Positions 2,382 through 55,426 of a stretch of DNA of 64,000 bases are shown in pieces. Within the stretch, counting starts at the first letter, position 1; each line of letters starts with the position of its first letter. The position numbers were made by a program, and so were the translations under genes. The notes under the pieces were generated by a model. The model did not search any database and was not told the origin of the DNA. It saw nothing but the letters and a program-made list of their open reading frames with translations. The stretch spans positions 15,603 through 79,602 of the forward strand of contig DFFP01000013.1 in assembly GCA_002372275.1 (NCBI GenBank), read 5' to 3'. This stretch comes from Alphaproteobacteria bacterium UBA3773. GTDB lineage: Bacteria > Pseudomonadota > Alphaproteobacteria > RF32 > CAG-239.

Positions 2382-3608
2382 TTATATTTGGAAAGATAGT
2401 TTTTCAAAAAACGCTTTGATTTCCTGATTTGAAATTGCTTCACAGGCTTCATTTAAAAAGGCTGAAGTCAATATTTTTTTAGCTTCATCTTCTGCTATAC
2501 CACGTGATTTTAAGTAAAAGAGCTGTTCTTCATCTAAAGCACCGCTTGTGGCACCGTGCGAGCATTTCACATCATCGGCATATATCTCTAAAGCAGGTTT
2601 AACATCCACTTTTGCGTCATCCGAGAGCAAAAGCGCACGATGTGTTTGGTGTCCGTTTGTTTGTACGGCACCTGGTTTAATTAAAATCTTTCCTTGAAAA
2701 ACACCGTGTGCATGGTCTCTCATCACACCTTTCACAATTTGATCAGAATTTGTGTGCGCCGACAAATGTTCGATATCCGTTGTTGTGTCGGCAAGTGTCT
2801 GACTACCTATCACATAAGCTCCGTTCACAAGTGCTGTTGCATTTTCTTGCTCTAACAAAACGTGCGTTTCGCACCGTGAAAGTTTGGAACCTGTTTGAAA
2901 GGCAAAACTATTGAAATGTCCGTTTTCTTTGACATGGACATGATTAAAACTGCTGTGCACGGCCGTCTTGCCGTCATTTTGCCATAAATAGTGCGTCAAT
3001 GTCGCATCAGGCGCAACAAAAATTTCATTGACCATATTGATAAAATAGGCTTCATCATTTCCTTGATAAAGTTCAAAAATTTCAGCCGTAACCCCTTTTT
3101 CTAAAATGATAAAGTTACGGATGTTATGAAAGCCTGCCGATTTTCCGTTATAAATGAGCGCAATCGGTTTTGCTGGCGTTTTAGAAATTCTTAAAAATAT
3201 CCCCTCTTGAACATACGCCGTATTGAGTGCCGCCAGCGGAAATTTATCCAAATCTATTTTATTTAAATATGGCGCTGTTTCATGATCTGCAAAAGCGTCT
3301 TCCAAACTCAAACATTCCGCACCTTCAATATAATGCAGATGATGGTGTAATGCCCCATCACAAAAGTGAATTTCATGCGCCTCAAAAGGTAAAAACTTTT
3401 TCTCGCAATCACAATGTGTATGATCATGGGCGTTTTTCGAAACTTTAAAATAATTTTCAGTCAAAACACTTTCAATCGGCGTATATTTAAAAGCTTCCGT
3501 TTTTAAATCCGTTAAATGCGCACATACTTCTCTTCCCTTTTGTTGAAAAGAAAATAAAGAAGGGACAGAGCTGTCTTGAAACTGAATGTGATCTGAAAAT
3601 TTTAACAT
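2382..3608 (-). CDS. sufD: Fe-S cluster assembly protein SufD
   Basis: 408-aa SufB/SufD-family protein lying downstream of sufC and overlapping it by 7 nt. Confidence 0.8.
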   Translation of the reverse strand: MLKFSDHIQFQDSSVPSLFSFQQKGREVCAHLTDLKTEAFKYTPIESVLTENYFKVSKNAHDHTHCDCEKKFLPFEAHEIHFCDGALHHHLHYIEGAECLSLEDAFADHETAPYLNKIDLDKFPLAALNTAYVQEGIFLRISKTPAKPIALIYNGKSAGFHNIRNFIILEKGVTAEIFELYQGNDEAYFINMVNEIFVAPDATLTHYLWQNDGKTAVHSSFNHVHVKENGHFNSFAFQTGSKLSRCETHVLLEQENATALVNGAYVIGSQTLADTTTDIEHLSAHTNSDQIVKGVMRDHAHGVFQGKILIKPGAVQTNGHQTHRALLLSDDAKVDVKPALEIYADDVKCSHGATSGALDEEQLFYLKSRGIAEDEAKKILTSAFLNEACEAISNQEIKAFFEKLSFQI

Positions 3609-4372
3609 TTTGCCTCGTTGATGAAATCAGTGTAACCTTTGGCCTCTAAGGTGAAGGCTAAAGTTTGATCGCCGGATTTGATGATTTTTCCGTCTGAAAA
3701 AACATGCACAAAATCAGGCTTCACATATTCAAACAAATCATCATGATGGGTAATAATCAAAAGAGATTTCTTTCCGTCAAGCAAGGCATTTATGCCTAAA
3801 AAAACGGTTTTTAGCGCATCAATATCAAGCCCCGAATCCGCCTCATCCAAAATCGCCAAATCCGGATTTAGAAGCGCCATTTGAAGTGTTTCCATACGTT
3901 TTTTTTCACCGCCTGAAAAGCCGACATTGATGGCACGTTTAAGCATTTCGGAACTGATATTTAATTTTGAAGCCTGCTTTCTGACCGTTTTCATAAATTC
4001 TGACATATCAAGCTCTTCAAGTCCTTGATATTTTCGCTTGGCATTCATAGCATATTTTAAGAACGTCATCATCGGAACACCCTCAATTTCAACCGGATAT
4101 TGCATCATTAAAAAGAGTCCCTCAAGTGCGCGCTCTTCTGTTTTGAGATCAAGTAAATTTTTGCCGTGAAACAAAATTTCGCCCGACGATACCACATACC
4201 CAGGTTTTCCGGTTAAAATATGCGAAAGTGTCGATTTTCCGGCACCGTTCGGCCCCATAATGGCGTGAACTTCCCCTTCATTAATGGTCAAATTTAGCCC
4301 TTTAATGATTTCTTTTCCCTCCACACCTGCATGCAGATTTTTGATTTCAAGTAATTCCTTTTTATATGTCAT
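3602..4372 (-). CDS. sufC: Fe-S cluster assembly ATPase SufC
   Basis: ABC ATPase with Walker A GPNGAGKST, signature FSGGEKKR and Walker B ILDEADSGLD. Confidence 0.9.
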   Translation of the reverse strand: MTYKKELLEIKNLHAGVEGKEIIKGLNLTINEGEVHAIMGPNGAGKSTLSHILTGKPGYVVSSGEILFHGKNLLDLKTEERALEGLFLMMQYPVEIEGVPMMTFLKYAMNAKRKYQGLEELDMSEFMKTVRKQASKLNISSEMLKRAINVGFSGGEKKRMETLQMALLNPDLAILDEADSGLDIDALKTVFLGINALLDGKKSLLIITHHDDLFEYVKPDFVHVFSDGKIIKSGDQTLAFTLEAKGYTDFINEAKC

Positions 4373-4417
4373 TATTTTTTCCTACTATATTCTCATCTCG
4401 ATAGATTTCCTACTGCA

Positions 4418-4444
4418 TTGTCATGCTGAACTTGTTTCAGCATC
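4418..4444. repeat. 27-bp hairpin-forming repeat, left copy of an inverted pair flanking the GIY-YIG gene
   Basis: ttgtcatgctgaacttgtttcagcatc. It contains an 8-bp stem (atgctgaa/ttcagcat). An 18-bp tandem duplication, aacttgtttcagcatctc, lies at 4429..4464. Confidence 0.7.
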
Positions 4445-4462
4445 TCAACTTGTTTCAGCATC

Positions 4463-4750
4463 TCATAAAATTTCATCATATAAATCTCTGAAACCATCAT
4501 TTGTTTTTTTGATTAAATTAATTTTCCAATCCCGATGCCAATTTTTAAGTTGCTTTTCTCTTTTAATCGCTTCATTGATGTCATTATATATTTCAAAATA
4601 AACCAATTTGCAAACATTATATTTTTTTGTAAAACCTTCATACAGTTTATTTTTATGTTCAAATATTCGTTTGATGAGATTTTTCGTAACTCCTATATAA
4701 AAAACATTATTGTTTTTATTTGTTAAAATATAGATATAGTATTGATTCAC
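4463..4750 (-). CDS. GIY-YIG (URI-domain) nuclease family protein, 95 aa
   Basis: YIYIL...FYIGVTKNL..R..EH motif. Inserted between sufC and sufB and bounded by inverted hairpin repeats. Confidence 0.8.
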   Translation of the reverse strand: MNQYYIYILTNKNNNVFYIGVTKNLIKRIFEHKNKLYEGFTKKYNVCKLVYFEIYNDINEAIKREKQLKNWHRDWKINLIKKTNDGFRDLYDEIL

Positions 4751-4766
4751 TTAATTTTGCCCCAGA

Positions 4767-4793
4767 GATCCTGAAACAAGTTCAGGATGACAA
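4767..4793. repeat. 27-bp hairpin-forming repeat, right copy (inverted) flanking the GIY-YIG gene
   Basis: gatcctgaaacaagttcaggatgacaa; its reverse complement matches the left copy at 25 of 27 positions. Confidence 0.7.
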
Positions 4794-4828
4794 ACTTGCT
4801 GATCTTCGATTCCGGAATTACATTTTTT

Positions 4829-5116
4829 TTATTTGTCATGCGTTTTTTCCCAATCATCTAAGCGCTTTTCAATTTTTTTCAGCTTTTCGGCTTTATAGCT
4901 TTCAACTTTATCTTTAATATCATAACAACATTTCAGTTGTTCAAGCATAATTTCGACATCAGCCGTTTCTTCAATCAATTCATCTACGTTATCTTTACCG
5001 CGATTAACATTTTTCAAAATTTCTTTGGTCAGTTCACTCATTTCTTCAATTACCTGAAGCATTTGAGGCGTTTTATGCCAAACGCGCAACGCTCTTTCAT
5101 AAATCGTTTCTTTCAT
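4829..5116 (-). CDS. MazG-like nucleotide pyrophosphohydrolase domain protein (95 aa)
   Basis: Small all-helical protein with paired acidic motifs (EEMSELTKE and EETADVE), as in the MazG/HisE fold. Its start codon overlaps the sufB stop. Confidence 0.5.
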   Translation of the reverse strand: MKETIYERALRVWHKTPQMLQVIEEMSELTKEILKNVNRGKDNVDELIEETADVEIMLEQLKCCYDIKDKVESYKAEKLKKIEKRLDDWEKTHDK

Positions 5117-6573
5117 TATCCGACACTTCCTTCTAAATTAATATTGATGAGTTTTGAGGCTTCAATGGCAAATTCCATCGGAAGTTTTTGCATCACCTCT
5201 TTACAAAAACCGTTGACAATCAATCCGACGGCATCTTCTTCTTTCATACCGCGTGATTTAAGATAAAAAAGCTGTTCTTCGCTGATTTTTGAGGTTGTGG
5301 CTTCATGTTCTAAAACCGCGCTCCGATTAGCATTTTCAATATAAGGTGTTGTATGTGAACCGCAAGTGGGACCAATAAGTAAACTGTCGCATTGAGAATA
5401 ATTTCGGGCATTTAAGGCTGATTTTGCAACTTTAACAAGCCCTCGATAAGTCTGGTCTGAATGACCGGCCGAAATACCTTTTGAAATAATTTTAGATGTG
5501 GTATGCGCACCGATATGGATCATTTTTGTGCCGGTATCAGCCTGTTGATAGTTATTTGTCAGAGCCACCGAATAAAATTCACCTGATGAATAATCCCCTT
5601 TTAACACGCATGACGGATATTTCCACGTCACGCTTGATCCTGTTTCAACCTGTGTCCAAGAAACTTTAGAGCGCAAACCTGCACAAAGTGCACGCTTGGT
5701 CACAAAATTATAGACCCCGCCCTTGCCGTCTTTATCCCCCGGATACCAGTTTTGAACGGTGGAATATTTTACCTCAGCATCATCTAAAACAACAATTTCC
5801 ACAATAGCGGCATGAAGCTGATTTTCATCCCGACGAGGCGCCGTGCAACCTTCTAAATATGAAACATAACTTCCTTCTTCGGCAATAATGAGTGTGCGCT
5901 CAAATTGACCGGTGTTTTGTGCGTTGATTCTGAAATAAGACGAAAGTTCCATCGGAGATTTTACGCCTTTGGGGATATACACAAATGAGCCGTCCGTAAA
6001 AACGGCCGAATTTAAACACGCAAAAAAATTATCCGTATACGGTACAACCGAGCCTAAATACTTTTGAACCAAATCAGGATGATTTTGGACTGCCTCTGAA
6101 ATCGAGCAGAAAATAATCCCTTTTTCAGCAAGTTTTGCCCGATATGTTGTGGCCACCGAAACACTGTCAAAAACTGCATCAACGGCCACAACACCTGCCA
6201 AAACTTCTTGTTCTTTTAAGGGGATTCCGAGTTTGTTATATGTATCCAAAAGCTCGGAAGAGACTTCATTTAAGCTGTTTGGTTTAACTTTTTGTTTCGG
6301 TGCGGCATAATAAAAAAGATCTTGATAATTGATTTTATCGTAACTGACCTTGGCCCATGTCGGCTCTTTCAATGTGAGCCAATGACGATAAGCCTTAAGG
6401 CGTCTTTCAAGAAGCCATTCAGGCTCATTTTTTTTGGCTGAAATCAGACGGATGATATCTTCTGACAAACCTTTCGGAACACTTTCAACCTCAATATCGG
6501 TTGTAAAGCCGTATTTGTATTTTTCGCCGCTTTCGTCGATGATATCAGGTTTTTGCGCCATTTTTTTTACCAT
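5116..6573 (-). CDS. sufB: Fe-S cluster assembly protein SufB
   Basis: 485-aa SufB-family protein, strongly conserved through the central and C-terminal regions. Confidence 0.9.
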
Positions 6574-7627: not shown

Positions 7628-7747
7628 AAAACAGTAATAATTAAGTCTTTTTTTCATGAAAAACAGTCAATAAATTGAAAATATCTGTTGCGACATTCTT
7701 TTTTTGTTGTATATTAGCGCAAGTCATAATTTTATGGGAGTAATCAG

Positions 7748-8107
7748 ATGTTGATTGGTAATGCACTTGCAGCAACAGAAAACGTTGCTGATGTAGCAGG
7801 AACATCAGTAGCGGCAAACATTATTCAAATTTTGCTTATCTTTTTGGTGTTTTATCTGCTTCTTATTCGTCCGCAACAAAAAAAGATGAAACAGCATGAA
7901 GCTGAATTAACCGCCATCAAAACAGGTGATCAGGTCATCACGGGCGGCGGTTTATATGCAACAGTCAAAGAGTGCCGTGATGATGAGTTAACACTTGAAT
8001 TATCGGAAGGACTGACTGTTAAGGCCAACCGCTGGACCATTCGCGAGGTTTTAAAAGCCAAAGAAAACTCCGCACCCGTTCAAAAAAATAAAAAGAAAAA
8101 GAAATAA
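7748..8107 (+). CDS. yajC: Preprotein translocase subunit YajC
   Basis: Single TM segment followed by RPQQKKMKQHEAEL..GDQV.T.GG; it lies upstream of secD. Confidence 0.8.
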   Translation: MLIGNALAATENVADVAGTSVAANIIQILLIFLVFYLLLIRPQQKKMKQHEAELTAIKTGDQVITGGGLYATVKECRDDELTLELSEGLTVKANRWTIREVLKAKENSAPVQKNKKKKK

Positions 8108-54379: not shown

Positions 54380-55426
54380 ATGAACTGCGACGATTTTGAA
54401 GCTTTGAGTTGTTTGTGTAAGATAACTGCATCTGCTGAAACTGGTTTGGTTAGATTTGAAGCACAGAGAGGATATGAAGTTACTGTGGCTGAATTAATCA
54501 AAAAAAATCAGCTTGAAAATTTATCTACGAAAGCATGGCATAATTTTTGGGAGGAATATATGCCAACTATTCAAGTACGTAGAAAATTAAGAGAACAGAA
54601 AATCAATGATTTTAAAAATAAGTCTTCGGAAAATATCGCTCAGCTTTCGTTAAAAGAAAGAATTGATTATCTTGAAGCCATATTTCATAAATATCAAACA
54701 AAGGGTGAAATGTCTGATATTTGCTCTAAAAATAAGGATAAATTAATGACGCTGCTTTATGGCATCAAATTGCCGAAGGATTTTTGGAAAAGTGAGGATC
54801 AACAAGCCGATCGCTTTGTTTCATTGGTTGCTCATAATAAAAAAATTACCGATAATATGAAAAATTGGCACAATATCAGTATAGAAGATAAAAAAGAAAC
54901 AATAAAAGAAACGGTAAAGATTATTGGATATGTATATGGTGCTCCTTTGGAAGTCGGATTTTATACTTCGGAGGAATATCGGAAAAAAGAGAATCTTGAT
55001 GAAAATGCACCGGTATTCGGAGCATATCATCAAGAAGGAAAATTATTTTTTAATACCGATCGTTTAGAAAATAGCGATAACTATATGGGAGTATCTGTTG
55101 TATTTCATGAATTTACACATAAACGGCAAAAAGAAACAAAGTTTGAAGACCCGTTGATAAACAGATTATTTGCTTGTAGAGTATATAACGCTGTTGGTTA
55201 TGAAAGGATAAATGTAGATACTTCCTCTCCGGAATACGGCGATATATATTCGTTAATGCCAACTGAAGTACACGCGTATGCTATGCAAAAATATGTTGAA
55301 GATGAGATTACAAATAAAACCGGAATAGAAAAGACTCAAGCTCAAGAAACAAAAGATGTAAGGCAAGTGCATGATAAATCTTTTGCTGTGGCTGCAATAG
55401 CATTGCAACATTCAAATCGAAGATAA
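54380..55426 (+). CDS. HExxH zinc-metallopeptidase-like protein (348 aa)
   Basis: Motif VVFHEFTHKRQ in the C-terminal third; flanked by ~21-bp direct repeats. Confidence 0.45.
   Translation: MNCDDFEALSCLCKITASAETGLVRFEAQRGYEVTVAELIKKNQLENLSTKAWHNFWEEYMPTIQVRRKLREQKINDFKNKSSENIAQLSLKERIDYLEAIFHKYQTKGEMSDICSKNKDKLMTLLYGIKLPKDFWKSEDQQADRFVSLVAHNKKITDNMKNWHNISIEDKKETIKETVKIIGYVYGAPLEVGFYTSEEYRKKENLDENAPVFGAYHQEGKLFFNTDRLENSDNYMGVSVVFHEFTHKRQKETKFEDPLINRLFACRVYNAVGYERINVDTSSPEYGDIYSLMPTEVHAYAMQKYVEDEITNKTGIEKTQAQETKDVRQVHDKSFAVAAIALQHSNRR

Follow-up and report, generated by a model that had tools for sequence, protein, structure and literature searches.

A probable Ssn cassette, a GIY-YIG nuclease gene between inverted hairpins, at a variably occupied junction of an alphaproteobacterial suf operon

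Introduction

In the suf operon of an uncultured gut alphaproteobacterium, a gene for a 95-aa single-domain GIY-YIG protein lies between two inverted 29-nt hairpins (together 4418-4793 of the window, i.e. of the whole 64-kb stretch of DNA analyzed here). What kind of unit is this, and has it moved in and out of the operon? The original prediction described a discrete GIY-YIG cassette associated with palindromic repeats, which our analysis bears out, and suspected a selfish, homing-endonuclease-like element, which fared less well (see below).

Two published lines of work provide the background. The Ssn family (Chenal et al. 2025, Nat Commun 16:2388; PMC11893778) comprises site-specific ssDNA endonucleases flanked by cognate SRM hairpins in the layout SRM-ssn-SRM, and corresponds in CDD to cd10448, GIY-YIG_unchar_3 (Chenal et al. 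2025). Binding and cleavage by SsnA are confined to ssDNA and strand-specific, with the cut placed upstream of the hairpin; dsDNA is not cut, the hairpin RNA is not bound, and in N. meningitidis the presence of SsnA makes transformation with DNA carrying the hairpin ~5-fold less efficient (PMC11893778). The CGTC-tagged REPs, which include dRS3 of Neisseria and RPE-4/RPE-6 of Rickettsia, are a hairpin class without a known transposase (Di Nocera, De Gregorio & Rocco 2013, BMC Genomics 14:522; PMC3733652). Whether the hairpin-gene-hairpin unit is mobile, and what spreads the repeats, was left open by both the Ssn paper (PMC11893778) and the survey of CGTC-tagged REPs (PMC3733652).

Results

Organization of the locus

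The annotation of sufB (5116-6573), sufC and sufD (2382-3608) was confirmed, all three genes being on one strand (Table 1). The 95-aa ORF between the cassette and sufB had been labeled MazG-like; this label could not be confirmed, as a search of Pfam and NCBIfam with the ORF returned no match above threshold. The GIY-YIG assignment of the cassette-borne gene (ssn) holds (Pfam E = 8e-19, with the domain spanning residues 3-78). Its AF2 model is a single compact domain (pLDDT 94.9); among solved structures it comes closest to the UPF0213 GIY-YIG protein BH0048 (1ZG2), with Slx1 and the N-terminal domain of UvrC next. At the sequence level the resemblance to UPF0213 proteins is marginal (E 0.03), and so were the best matches of a PDB sequence search, which revealed no solved structure of the family. 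The family alignment shows no variation at Y7, Y18, R28, H32 and E65 (26 homologues for Y7, Y18 and E65).

The two ends of the cassette are 93% complementary and, read in the same orientation, identical at 27/29 positions; the 25/27 previously counted is the same match over shorter ends. Both differences (G/C at 4425 and 4441 vs C/G at 4786 and 4770) are mutually compensatory in the predicted 8-bp stem, which forms, with a 5-nt loop, when either arm is folded as ssDNA (-6.1 kcal/mol, z -2.9, for the upstream and -7.7 kcal/mol, z -3.4, for the downstream SRM). The hairpins have a TGTC head, the stems ATCCTGAA and ATGCTGAA, the loop CTTGT and the tail CTC; one is located 14 nt upstream of the ssn start codon and the other 0-18 nt downstream of its stop codon. 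An 18-bp tandem duplication at the left end, also noted before, was confirmed: the repeated unit spans the downstream SRM from its loop through the 3' arm to the tail, with the second copy extending into the ssn stop codon. Half-hairpin duplications are seen in relatives too (12-nt in L088; others in L007, L048, L042 and L015).

A degenerate 29-mer representing the arms occurs exactly twice in the window (0/100 shuffles). With a covariance model derived from homologous loci, each copy reaches ~43 bits with E ~3e-9 (43.5 bits and E 2.5e-9 upstream; 43.2 bits and E 2.9e-9 downstream), against 14 bits for the next-best match in the window, and no dispersed hairpins are detected in the 64 kb besides these two. 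The count of repeats and paralogues, which applies to the 64-kb window only, thus stands at two hairpins and zero ssn paralogues; a weak tblastn match at 55268-55360 turned out to be the wrong strand of a real ORF.

A promoter/terminator scan found no promoter consensus or terminator-like site at the cassette. As ssn shares the strand of the suf genes and no terminator-like signal intervenes, it is probably co-transcribed with them. An Rfam search of the interval 3500-6000 at E <= 1 gave zero matches, and the hairpin thus corresponds to no curated RNA family. A listed defence system was considered and rejected, PADLOC having returned sub-threshold noise only.

Two minor features of the spacers are recorded in Table 1. 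Both copies of the short direct repeat start like the SRM end ATGACA, and an analogous 25-nt repeat pair is found in L088 at the same place, between the downstream SRM and the sufC start. The 10-nt palindrome resembles the GTCATTCCG...CGGAATC type of SRM in L015, L045 and L077; it is possibly a relic of a third SRM without loop, a weak assignment, and the covariance model does not detect it.

Table 1. Coordinates of the features of the suf-located cassette and its borders (window numbering)
Feature	Position	Strand	Description
sufC	3602..4372	-	Flanking gene, intact; same strand as the cassette
Right copy of duplicated target junction	4359..4372	-	ATGACATATAAAAA; sufC start; 13/14 match to left copy
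Segment missing from L084/L085	4373..4825	-	Two SRMs, ssn, 34-nt left spacer and 45-nt right spacer
Two short direct repeats, ATGA(C/G)A..AGTAGGAAA	4406-4424 and 4378-4396 (overall 4378..4424)	-	84% identical; between downstream SRM and sufC start
Downstream SRM (3' of ssn, inverted relative to upstream SRM)	4418..4446	+	TTGTCAT GCTGAA CTTGT TTCAGC ATCTC; stem 4423-4430 with 4436-4443
18-nt tandem duplication, second copy	4447..4464	+	AACTTGTTTCAGCATCTC; first copy 4429-4446
ssn	4463..4750	-	GTG start, 95 aa, TGA stop overlapping the duplicated half-hairpin
Upstream SRM (5' of ssn, sense orientation)	4765..4793	-	TTGTCAT CCTGAA CTTGT TTCAGG ATCTC; stem 4788-4781 with 4775-4768; GTC head, C tail
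Perfect 10-nt palindrome	4809..4818		ATTCCGGAAT within TGTAATTCCGGAATCG; weak by-eye call
Left copy of duplicated target junction	4826..4839	-	ATGACAAATAAAAA; end of the 95-aa ORF including its stop codon
95-aa flanking ORF	4829..5116	-	Outside the cassette; its 3' end is the insertion target

Assignment to the Ssn family

As a reference for SsnA we used the 94-aa N. gonorrhoeae orthologue (L181:598-882) in place of N. meningitidis CAX49033.1. The window protein is 46% identical to it over 93 aa without gaps (E 2e-34 pairwise, 7e-24 in a database search), well inside the homology limits of Chenal et al. (blastp E < 1e-10 with >=75% coverage), and its Y7, Y18 and E65 occupy the positions of Y6, Y17 and E64 in the Neisseria orthologue. 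With 95 aa it is also a single-domain GIY-YIG protein below the limit of 150 aa set for the family, and its gene has the SRM hairpins in both the 5' and the 3' flank that are a trait of Ssn loci. When trained on the window hairpins together with their homologues, the covariance model also picks up 13 NTS copies around Neisseria ssnA as well as Wolbachia SRM copies. Overall, sequence and layout make it likely that the locus is an Ssn cassette, consisting of a 95-aa protein of the GIY-YIG ssDNA-endonuclease family and two inverted cognate hairpins. An Ssn cassette is an already described kind of system and no novel class of element.

The published SRM string, HGTCWYN(0-2)YYVSBRHN(0-5)WNVSBRGN(0-2)RNCYNB, matches neither of the two hairpins nor any other part of the window. 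It matches 8/80 related loci, and the Wolbachia hairpin passes. Built on 29 genomes whose stems are richer in GC, the string serves as a search heuristic and does not define the family; the window hairpins fail it because their stems are AT-richer. The AT-richer class CCTGAA-CTTGT-TTCAGG in fact dominates among the closest homologues in many phyla.

Homologous loci across phyla

The same hairpin-gene-hairpin layout was found for Ssn homologues from more than 15 phyla (80 loci). Hairpins were counted with a strict motif (GTCA, >=8 bp and C; background 0.023 per kb), while dispersed copies were assessed with this motif and the covariance model after a looser motif (>=6 pairs) had been dropped for its background of 0.5 per kb. 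Within 200 nt upstream of ssn, the strict motif occurs in the sense orientation 58 times and in the antisense orientation 19 times; within 200 nt downstream, the antisense orientation prevails (59, vs 18 sense). Both flanks carry hairpins in 42 of the 80 loci. The stems covary (96.7% of cells paired, 134 cells changed on both sides, a level reached by 0/500 shuffles), with the pairing statistics inflated by the selection of the alignment with a motif that itself requires 6 pairs. Conserved features include the unpaired GTC head, the C tail and the orientation of the loop. Across phyla, the upstream and downstream hairpins each keep a fixed orientation toward ssn.

In the other taxa, not one of the 80 loci is located in a suf operon. 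Some homologues (L018, L025) are adjoined by gene-less hairpin doublets. A search of 2.9 million viral contigs yielded 1 Ssn homologue only.

A comparison of the window ssn with its orthologues gave pN of 0.12-0.19 and pS of 0.58-0.79, values that indicate strong purifying selection with synonymous sites saturated. Its GC3 (0.20) is slightly below the family trend, in which ssn GC3 follows host GC (r = 0.75).

Filled and empty sites in related suf operons

The cassette had been predicted to be an insertion in the suf operon, and relatives agree with this. In the sister lineage (L084/L085; SufB 97.5% identical) the site is empty, the stop of the small ORF overlaps the sufC start, and the protein encoded by this ORF is 100% identical to that of the window; in the blastn alignment, positions 4827 and 4348 of the window correspond to 4290 and 4299 of L084. 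Of the other suf loci, retrieved through the neighboring 95-aa ORF, 16/19 are empty as well, and four more distant relatives are filled at the same 95-aa-ORF/sufC junction. The suf series comprises the window, L088, L091 and L096, filled at one junction, L104, filled at another, and 17 empty relatives. The sufB junction holds an insertion of a second, distinct Ssn lineage (57% identical). Filled and empty lineages are interleaved in a SufB+SufC tree, a pattern that requires 5 or more gains or losses in the 24 related lineages. The suf-located Ssn proteins form a weakly supported cluster (15% bootstrap) and have diverged in step with SufC. As the site is filled in some relatives and cleanly empty in others, the cassette, judged by these comparisons, has been gained and lost as a unit over evolutionary time, and it behaves as an insertion/excision polymorphism at the suf junction.

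In the empty-site relative, the bases of the left junction copy, where the 95-aa ORF ends, double as the sufC start, and this stop/start junction is duplicated on either side of the cassette, so that no ORF is disrupted, as had been predicted. The duplication extends over 13/14 nt in the window and is perfect over 14, 25 and 28 nt in L088, L104 and L091, respectively. By eye, similarity between the two window copies runs further upstream into a purine-rich ribosome-binding stretch (GGGAAAAAACGC vs AGGAAAAAATA). Among 45 other loci, ~6 have flanking target duplications that exceed the control maximum; at least one of these, at L025, was discarded, being really a repeated hairpin-doublet unit.

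Two simple histories were considered. A single ancient fixed gene, suggested by the four relatives filled at the same site, is weakened by the census through the neighboring ORF and by the host tree. A recent horizontal arrival in the window lineage is disfavored by a GC3 close to the family trend and by the diverged target duplication, which together make an old insertion, followed by loss in the sister lineage L084, the more likely origin of the window copy. A different composition is seen in L096, where GC3 is 0.23 in ssn vs 0.67 in the flanking suf genes.

Discussion

Proposed mode of action

By analogy with the Neisseria and Wolbachia enzymes, Ssn would bind the hairpin only while its strand is single-stranded, and only the strand reading 5'-TGTCAT..ATC-3', and would then cut a few nt 5' of the GTC head. 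Since the two hairpins are inverted, the predicted cuts would fall just outside both cassette ends and on opposite strands (~4794-4799 on the minus and ~4412-4417 on the plus strand). Entry of the cassette would have duplicated the stop/start junction and thereby kept both neighbor genes intact. In this genome the cassette is a single, old copy under purifying selection, and with only two hairpins in 64 kb the genome-wide marking role proposed for Neisseria is not simply transferable to it. For the same reasons (a single copy in the window, purifying selection, diverged target duplications and no dispersed hairpins in 64 kb) the term "selfish element" of the original prediction can be kept as a hypothesis only.

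Alternative interpretations

A stronger reading, compatible with the assignment as an Ssn cassette, is that of an autonomous transposable element with Ssn as its transposase, which would nick beyond the two inverted hairpins; the unit would move via an intermediate that is single-stranded or coupled to replication. Entry would create the 14-28-nt target duplication, and precise excision would restore ATGACAAATAA. The layout is indeed that of an insertion sequence, with predicted cut sites outside both ends (see also the discussion in PMC11893778), and the repeated gain or loss among the 24 lineages, the perfect 25-nt and 28-nt duplications around the L104 and L091 cassettes, the second Ssn lineage at another junction of the same operon, the occurrence of cassettes in unrelated genomic contexts across phyla, the deviating GC3 of the L096 gene and the hairpin doublets lacking a gene beside homologues such as L018 and L025 all point in this direction. 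On the other hand, there is one copy per locus and no second one in 64 kb, neither GIY-YIG enzymes nor Ssn have a known strand-transfer or ligation activity, and duplications above background are rare beyond the suf series. Their varying length (14, 25, 28 nt) is unlike the product of a transposase with a fixed stagger, the correlation of ssn GC3 with host GC speaks for long residence, and the grouping of the suf Ssn proteins with their SufC-like divergence would fit one old insertion followed by losses through recombination between direct repeats. We therefore regard transposition by Ssn as possible, albeit doubtful.

An unlikely but still plausible alternative is a domesticated host module, in which Ssn would cut incoming or transient hairpin-bearing ssDNA (during transformation, conjugation or at replication gaps) and so restrict recombination at its own locus, in line with the proposal made for Neisseria. 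The strong purifying selection on ssn with its saturated synonymous sites is consistent with such a role, as are the effect of N. meningitidis SsnA on transformation (PMC11893778) and the position of the gene on the suf strand with no terminator between; co-transcription would tie ssn expression to the control signals of the suf operon. However, two hairpins in 64 kb, both at ssn, leave little to mark, and most related lineages lack the cassette.

The hairpins might also be RNA-level elements of the operon (terminators, attenuators or mRNA stabilizers) with an incidental association with the nuclease. They would be transcribed within the suf mRNA, and REP elements can act on mRNA stability according to the literature, but this reading appears very improbable: neither hairpin is followed by a U-tract, the cassette contains no terminator-like site and no Rfam match, SsnA does not bind the RNA version of its hairpin (PMC11893778), and the conserved GTC head, C tail and loop orientation, together with the fixed orientation relative to ssn across phyla, are foreign to it. 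Finally, a homing endonuclease of the I-TevI type, cutting the empty dsDNA allele and being copied in by repair, hardly deserves credence in spite of the GIY-YIG domain, a sub-threshold match to the group I intron endonuclease model (TIGR01453, 25.2 bits vs a cutoff of 56.05) and the filling of the same junction in several lineages, as the 95-aa protein has no linker or DNA-binding domain, the gene resides in a bacterial operon with no intron or intein, characterized Ssn members cut ssDNA only, beside their own hairpin, and not dsDNA (PMC11893778), and homing leaves no target duplication of the kind present here; the "homing-endonuclease-like" part of the original prediction is abandoned accordingly.

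Significance of the suf series

Taken alone, the locus is one more Ssn cassette and leaves our knowledge of the enzyme unchanged. Its value lies in the comparative series, i.e. in closely related gut alphaproteobacteria that have the same suf operon with and without the cassette, along with junction duplications, of which some are perfect, and a second Ssn lineage at a neighboring junction. This series makes the question of mobility testable with defined filled and empty sequences. A second outcome is that the published hairpin string misses a large, AT-richer class (CCTGAA-CTTGT-TTCAGG).

Tentatively, and with more doubt than confidence, we put forward a broader proposal: SRM-ssn-SRM cassettes may constitute a previously unrecognized class of prokaryotic mobile elements whose sole protein is a 95-aa GIY-YIG ssDNA nuclease, which would insert at gene junctions with unusually long duplications (~14-28 nt) that spare both neighbors and would be removed precisely by recombination between these duplications. 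If this were true, Ssn would be the long-sought mobilizer of the orphan CGTC-tagged REPs (dRS3, RPE-4/6 and the Wolbachia repeats), and the suf series would provide the first natural collection of occupied and vacant sites to document such mobility.

Comparison with known systems

With I-TevI-family homing endonucleases and UPF0213/YhbQ-type proteins the window protein shares the GIY-YIG catalytic fold. It differs from the former by lacking a DNA-binding domain and by its location outside introns, and the Ssn clade is set apart from the latter by its association with hairpins. The inverted ends, the junction duplications and the empty sites in relatives are traits of a generic insertion sequence; the single copy, the varying length of the duplication and the lack of a known transposase chemistry are not.

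The REP/REPIN-RAYT and IS200/IS605 systems likewise have a single-copy nuclease gene between inverted hairpins that are recognized as ssDNA, and gene-less hairpin doublets in some related genomes; they and the Ssn system alike have been proposed to be domesticated mobile elements. Their enzyme is an HUH tyrosine (Y1) transposase, whereas the sole domain of the window protein is GIY-YIG, and IS200/IS605 inserts without target duplication, in contrast to the 14-28-nt junction duplications of the Ssn cassettes.

The hairpins themselves closely resemble the CGTC-tagged REPs, with which they share the TGTC head (an allowed variant of CGTC), an 8-bp stem with A-T and T-A as first pairs, a 5-nt loop, a short unpaired tail and the mutual inversion of the two copies. 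As described for that family, an unpaired CGTC or TGTC head precedes a stem of 8-9 bp, and the loop measures 4-5 nt (PMC3733652). The tail is CTC in the window vs the REP consensus CCA, and the REPs are dispersed in high copy number while "lacking a dedicated transposase", whereas the window has two copies in 64 kb, both attached to a nuclease gene.

The closest counterpart is the Ssn/SsnA system of Neisseria, which has the same single-domain GIY-YIG protein of ~94 aa with the catalytic Tyr/Tyr/Glu, the same hairpin-ssn-hairpin layout, and hairpins with the same (C/T)GTCAT head, 8-9-bp stem starting with A-T and T-A, and ATC tail. Stem and loop of the window hairpins, however, belong to the AT-richer class that escapes the published string. 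Pathogenic Neisseria carry hundreds of hairpins, as compared with only two in the 64 kb analyzed here, and the window cassette sits in an essential operon of an uncultured gut alphaproteobacterium.

Organization of the cassette

The cassette (4418-4793), an insertion in the suf operon, very probably consists of a gene for a site-specific single-stranded DNA nuclease of the Ssn family and the two hairpins cognate to it; the activity of the enzyme is predicted. The features are collected in the table. As the original prediction had it, the ends are inverted repeats with 8-bp-stem hairpins; the two 29-nt arms are 93% complementary, and their two mismatches represent a swapped third stem pair (G:C to C:G), so that either copy keeps a perfect 8-bp stem and a 5-nt loop. 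Their folding energies as ssDNA are -6.1 and -7.7 kcal/mol (z = -2.9 and -3.4). A degenerate 29-mer detects only these two sites in 64 kb (0 of 100 shuffles), and a covariance model run with filters off finds exactly two hairpins across the window, at 43 bits each (runner-up 14 bits). The proposed count of repeat and paralogue copies thus gave these two hairpins and, within the 64-kb window, no second ssn-like gene. The enclosed 95-aa GIY-YIG protein and the tandem duplication of 18 bp at one end were likewise as described. Tandem duplications of half a hairpin (a single arm, with or without loop) are common at ssn cassettes, in unrelated taxa too: besides 4429-4464 in the window, they occur at 3939-3962 of the relative L088 and in the upstream or downstream flanks of homologue loci L007, L015, L040, L042 and L048.

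Features of the window cassette and of related suf loci
Feature	Locus	Position	Strand	Remarks
Hairpin TTGTCATGCTGAACTTGTTTCAGCATCTC	window	4418-4446	+	29 nt, inverted relative to other copy
Hairpin TTGTCATCCTGAACTTGTTTCAGGATCTC	window	4765-4793	-	29 nt, inverted relative to other copy
Tandem duplication AACTTGTTTCAGCATCTC	window	4429-4446 and 4447-4464	+	18 nt; loop, 3' arm and tail of plus-strand hairpin
ssn ORF	window	4463-4750	-	GTG start, 95 aa; Pfam GIY-YIG, E = 8e-19
sufB	window	5116-6573	-	same strand as cassette
Small ORF	window	4829-5116	-	95 aa; same strand as cassette, between it and sufB
sufC	window	3602-4372	-	same strand as cassette
sufD	window	2382-3608	-	same strand as cassette
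Junction duplication ATGACAAATAAAAA / ATGACATATAAAAA	window	4826-4839 / 4359-4372		13/14
Junction duplication TTGGAAGGAAGCGTCGGATAATGGA	L104			perfect, 25 nt; sufB end and small-ORF start (sufB-stop/ORF-start overlap)
Junction duplication TCTTGATGAATGGGAGAACAAAAAATAA	L091			perfect, 28 nt
Junction duplication GAACAGACGCATGA	L088			perfect, 14 nt, with a third, degenerate copy
Ssn homologue P0003	L088	upstream of sufC
Ssn homologue P0010	L091	upstream of sufC
Ssn homologue P0009	L095	upstream of sufC
Ssn homologue P0063	L096	upstream of sufC

A scan of the cassette found no terminator-like or promoter-like consensus, so that it is probably transcribed together with the suf genes by read-through. 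Compared with its orthologues, the window ssn differs at 0.12-0.19 per non-synonymous site, while synonymous differences are saturated (0.58-0.79), a pattern indicating that the gene is maintained by selection.

Probable assignment to the Ssn family

The Ssn system has already been described by Chenal et al. 2025 (PMC11893778). SsnA of Neisseria meningitidis, a 94-aa single-domain GIY-YIG protein (CDD cd10448), binds the hairpin repeat NTS (CGTCATTCCCGCGMAVGCGGGAATCYRG) as ssDNA only and on that strand only, and cuts a few nt 5' of it; dsDNA and RNA are not substrates, the mutations Y6A, Y17A and E64A abolish cleavage, and GTC ahead of the palindrome matters for cutting and C behind it for binding (PMC11893778). 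Enzymes of two more Neisseria species and of Wolbachia were shown to cleave their own motifs, and among homologues across bacteria 71% have at least one "Ssn-related motif" (SRM) and 42% have it on both sides (PMC11893778).

A direct comparison with Neisseria SsnA was possible because PLSDB lists as plasmids two complete N. gonorrhoeae chromosomes (~2.17 Mb), in which the ssnA region is unannotated (L181, NZ_CP119140.1). The window protein matched such a chromosome at E = 7e-24; the ORF at L181:598-882 encodes 94 aa, including Y6, Y17 and E64, and aligns with the window protein over 93 residues, gapless, at 46% identity (E = 2e-34). Residues Y7, Y18 and E65 of the window protein are invariant across the family alignment. 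Its AlphaFold model is one GIY-YIG domain (pLDDT 94.9), with UPF0213 BH0048, Slx1 and the UvrC N-terminal domain as the best solved structural neighbours; no solved Ssn structure was found by structure and sequence comparison with solved proteins.

The covariance model of window and homologue hairpins recovers 13 NTS copies in 1.5 kb around the Neisseria gene and also detects the Wolbachia hairpins. The literal degenerate SRM string of Chenal et al. fails on both window hairpins and matches in only 8 of 80 homologue loci, since it requires GC-rich bases in the stem and allows little variation in the tail; it was treated here as a heuristic for searching rather than a family definition. The CCTGAA-CTTGT-TTCAGG class, commonest in the closest homologues, is under-counted by it.

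Hairpins and homologues across taxa

Homologues of the window protein (~65-78% identity) number in the thousands and come from widely differing phyla. Eighty loci were taken from species-representative genomes of Alpha-, Gamma- and Deltaproteobacteria, Patescibacteria, Bacteroidota, Ignavibacteria, Cyanobacteria, Dehalococcoidia, Omnitrophota, Elusimicrobia, Treponema, Wolbachia and others. Nearly all are flanked by a sense hairpin, (T/C)GTCAT-stem-loop-stem-ATC, 5' of the gene and by its reverse complement 3'. A strict motif, GTCA followed by 8 or more consecutive pairs and then C (background 0.023 per kb), scored 58 sense and 19 antisense within 200 nt upstream of the gene and 18 sense and 59 antisense within 200 nt downstream, with canonical hairpins on both flanks at 42 of the 80 loci. 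Stem sequences vary by taxon yet pair (CCTGAA/TTCAGG, CCCGCG/CGCGGG, CCAGTG/CACTGG): in an alignment of 92 hairpins, selected by a motif that itself needs six pairs, 96.7% of cells are paired and 134 are changed on both sides (0 of 500 shuffles as high). Four features that the search did not impose are conserved as well: the G that precedes TCAT, a preferred T in front of that G, T/C behind ATC, and the orientation of the loop.

The combination seen in the window, third stem pair C:G upstream and G:C downstream, is the commonest in alignment A2 (L004-L083 and the window), at 9 of 37 two-hairpin loci vs 2 with the reverse; the G:C pair is enriched downstream (15/45 vs 6/47 upstream; Fisher p = 0.025, uncorrected for relatedness). 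The two cassette ends may be functionally distinct, a "left" and a "right". Five homologue loci (L018, L019, L025, L056, L064) carry, in place of single hairpins, REPIN-like head-to-head doublets with spacers of ~45 nt. One of 2.9 million viral contigs has a relative of the window protein (L180, IMGVR_UViG_3300045988_146177), with three hairpins directly 3' of its gene; phages do not seem to carry the cassette as a rule.

Filled and empty suf sites

The comparison with suf operons of relatives proposed in the original prediction did reveal an empty site, both in a sister lineage (contigs L084 and L085, on which the small 95-aa protein is 100% identical) and in 16 of 19 census loci. In the sister lineage (SufB 97.5%, SufC 96.4% and nucleotides 87-92% identical to the window) the cassette is absent and the stop of the small ORF overlaps the sufC start (CATGACAAATAA), the window having ~455-470 nt extra. 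The census, seeded with the small ORF and not with ssn, covered 19 loci with the sufB-ORF-sufC context: none is filled at the small-ORF/sufC junction, in L100 the place is taken by a tandem paralogue of the small ORF (817-1095, between that ORF and sufC), and L117, truncated before sufC, was left unscored. In a further census locus, L104, the sufB/small-ORF junction is occupied (1053-1487) by another Ssn lineage (57% identical), whose hairpin stems are of other types (GTCATTCTGAAC.. and GTCATCCTGAGG..).

The closest Ssn homologues occupy the same site, directly upstream of sufC, in L088, L091, L095 and L096, four lineages at a greater distance (identity to the window 81-86% for SufB and 67-76% for Ssn). 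At the 80 loci from other taxa, ssn has no suf genes as neighbours. In a neighbour-joining tree of SufB and SufC, filled lineages are intermixed with empty ones (window with L084 at 100% bootstrap, L088 with two empty lineages at 88%), which requires at least five gains or losses under any scenario. The ssn of L096 (4001-4288) has a GC3 of 0.23, vs 0.67 for sufB and sufC and 0.58 for the small ORF, a mismatch suggesting that it reached this junction recently; L033 (Ruminococcaceae) deviates in a similar way.

In L091 (4300-4727; also L092, GCA_017470585.1) the interval from ssn to sufC contains seven hairpins and a tandem duplication of 189 nt (157 nt at 91% identity), including a degenerate extra copy of the small ORF 3' end; together they make up a local BIME-like array within the suf operon. 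Two LRR_5-domain genes of L084 (676-1509 and 6610-7524), the first between yajC and a LysM/M23 gene, the second between sufD and def, are missing from the window (~7630-7750 and 2380); several small insertions around the suf operon thus distinguish the two genomes. The small ORF had been called MazG-like, a name left unconfirmed by our searches, in which it had no family match above threshold; by eye it has E-x2-E ... E-x2-D-like acidic motifs. Its homologues (39-56% identity) are common without suf context (L119-L179), and L095 has the suf operon and ssn without it.

Junction duplications

In the suf series, the gene junction interrupted by a cassette is directly duplicated on either side of it (table). 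The window copies show weak further similarity into a purine-rich stretch upstream. As the genes originally overlapped, the duplication lets both neighbours survive, and the predicted repeat-associated insert sparing all ORFs is borne out by this arrangement and by the empty sites. The direct repeats would also offer a route for precise deletion of the cassette, which would explain clean empty sites. The next best homologue of the window Ssn is 77-78% identical, and a near-identical donor is absent from a very large database; together with the diverged duplication, this makes a recent gain less likely for the window copy than an old insertion that was lost in L084. Of 45 other loci scanned, only about six had flanking repeats above control (at least one of them a repeated hairpin doublet and no target duplication), and the duplication is thus well documented in the suf series only, where empty sites allow comparison.

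Two short direct repeats (4378-4396 and 4406-4424) separate the downstream hairpin from the sufC start; both open with ATGA(C/G)A, as do the hairpin end and the sufC start. A 25-nt repeat pair holds the equivalent position in L088 (4309-4358), and L091 has a run of (G)ATGACAA repeats. The ATGACA motif may repeatedly have been a site of slippage or renewed cutting. In the spacer that separates the small ORF from the upstream hairpin, a perfect palindrome, ATTCCGGAAT (4809-4818), within TGTAATTCCGGAATCG (4807-4822), resembles an additional, third SRM, of the GTCATTCCG..CGGAATC type and without its loop; it is not picked up by the covariance model.

Possible mobility of the cassette and comparison with known systems

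If the Neisseria enzyme is a guide, the cleavable strands would be the minus strand at the upstream hairpin and the plus strand at the downstream one, and the cuts would fall a few nt beyond 4793 and before 4418, outside both cassette ends. Such cut sites, along with the IS-like layout, would suit a mobile unit moved by Ssn itself, a proposition that we nevertheless regard as doubtful; joining chemistry is not known in GIY-YIG enzymes and there is one copy only. Long perfect junction duplications speak for it, although their length varies. The turnovers at the suf site (at least five) and the second Ssn lineage at the adjacent junction in L104 also argue for movement; on the other hand, the suf-located Ssn proteins cluster (15% bootstrap only), in line with a single old insertion and later losses. 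Cassette contexts are unrelated from phylum to phylum and the L096 copy is unameliorated, but composition is host-like in most genomes (ssn GC3 vs flank GC, r = 0.75).

By analogy with Neisseria, it is possible that Ssn has a domesticated role, limiting recombination of hairpin-bearing ssDNA; this role is hard to square with there being two hairpins in 64 kb and no cassette in most relatives. The homing-endonuclease-like character originally proposed was rejected, as the protein is single-domain and characterised SsnA does not act on dsDNA, and so was a reading of the hairpins as RNA elements, given the lack of terminator-like consensus at the cassette and the inactivity of SsnA on RNA (PMC11893778).

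Overall, the cassette is of the Ssn kind already described and not a new class, and the locus itself is ordinary for the family. Chenal et al. likened NTS-ssnA-NTS to an insertion sequence, with domestication as their hypothesis (PMC11893778). The same hairpins had earlier been defined by Di Nocera et al. 2013 as "CGTC-tagged REPs", with a CGTC/TGTC head, an 8-9-bp stem starting A-T, T-A, a 4-5-nt loop and a short tail, which "apparently lack a dedicated transposase" (PMC3733652). The series of filled and empty sites with target duplications bears on the question of mobility, both of Ssn cassettes and of the CGTC-type REPs that accompany them.
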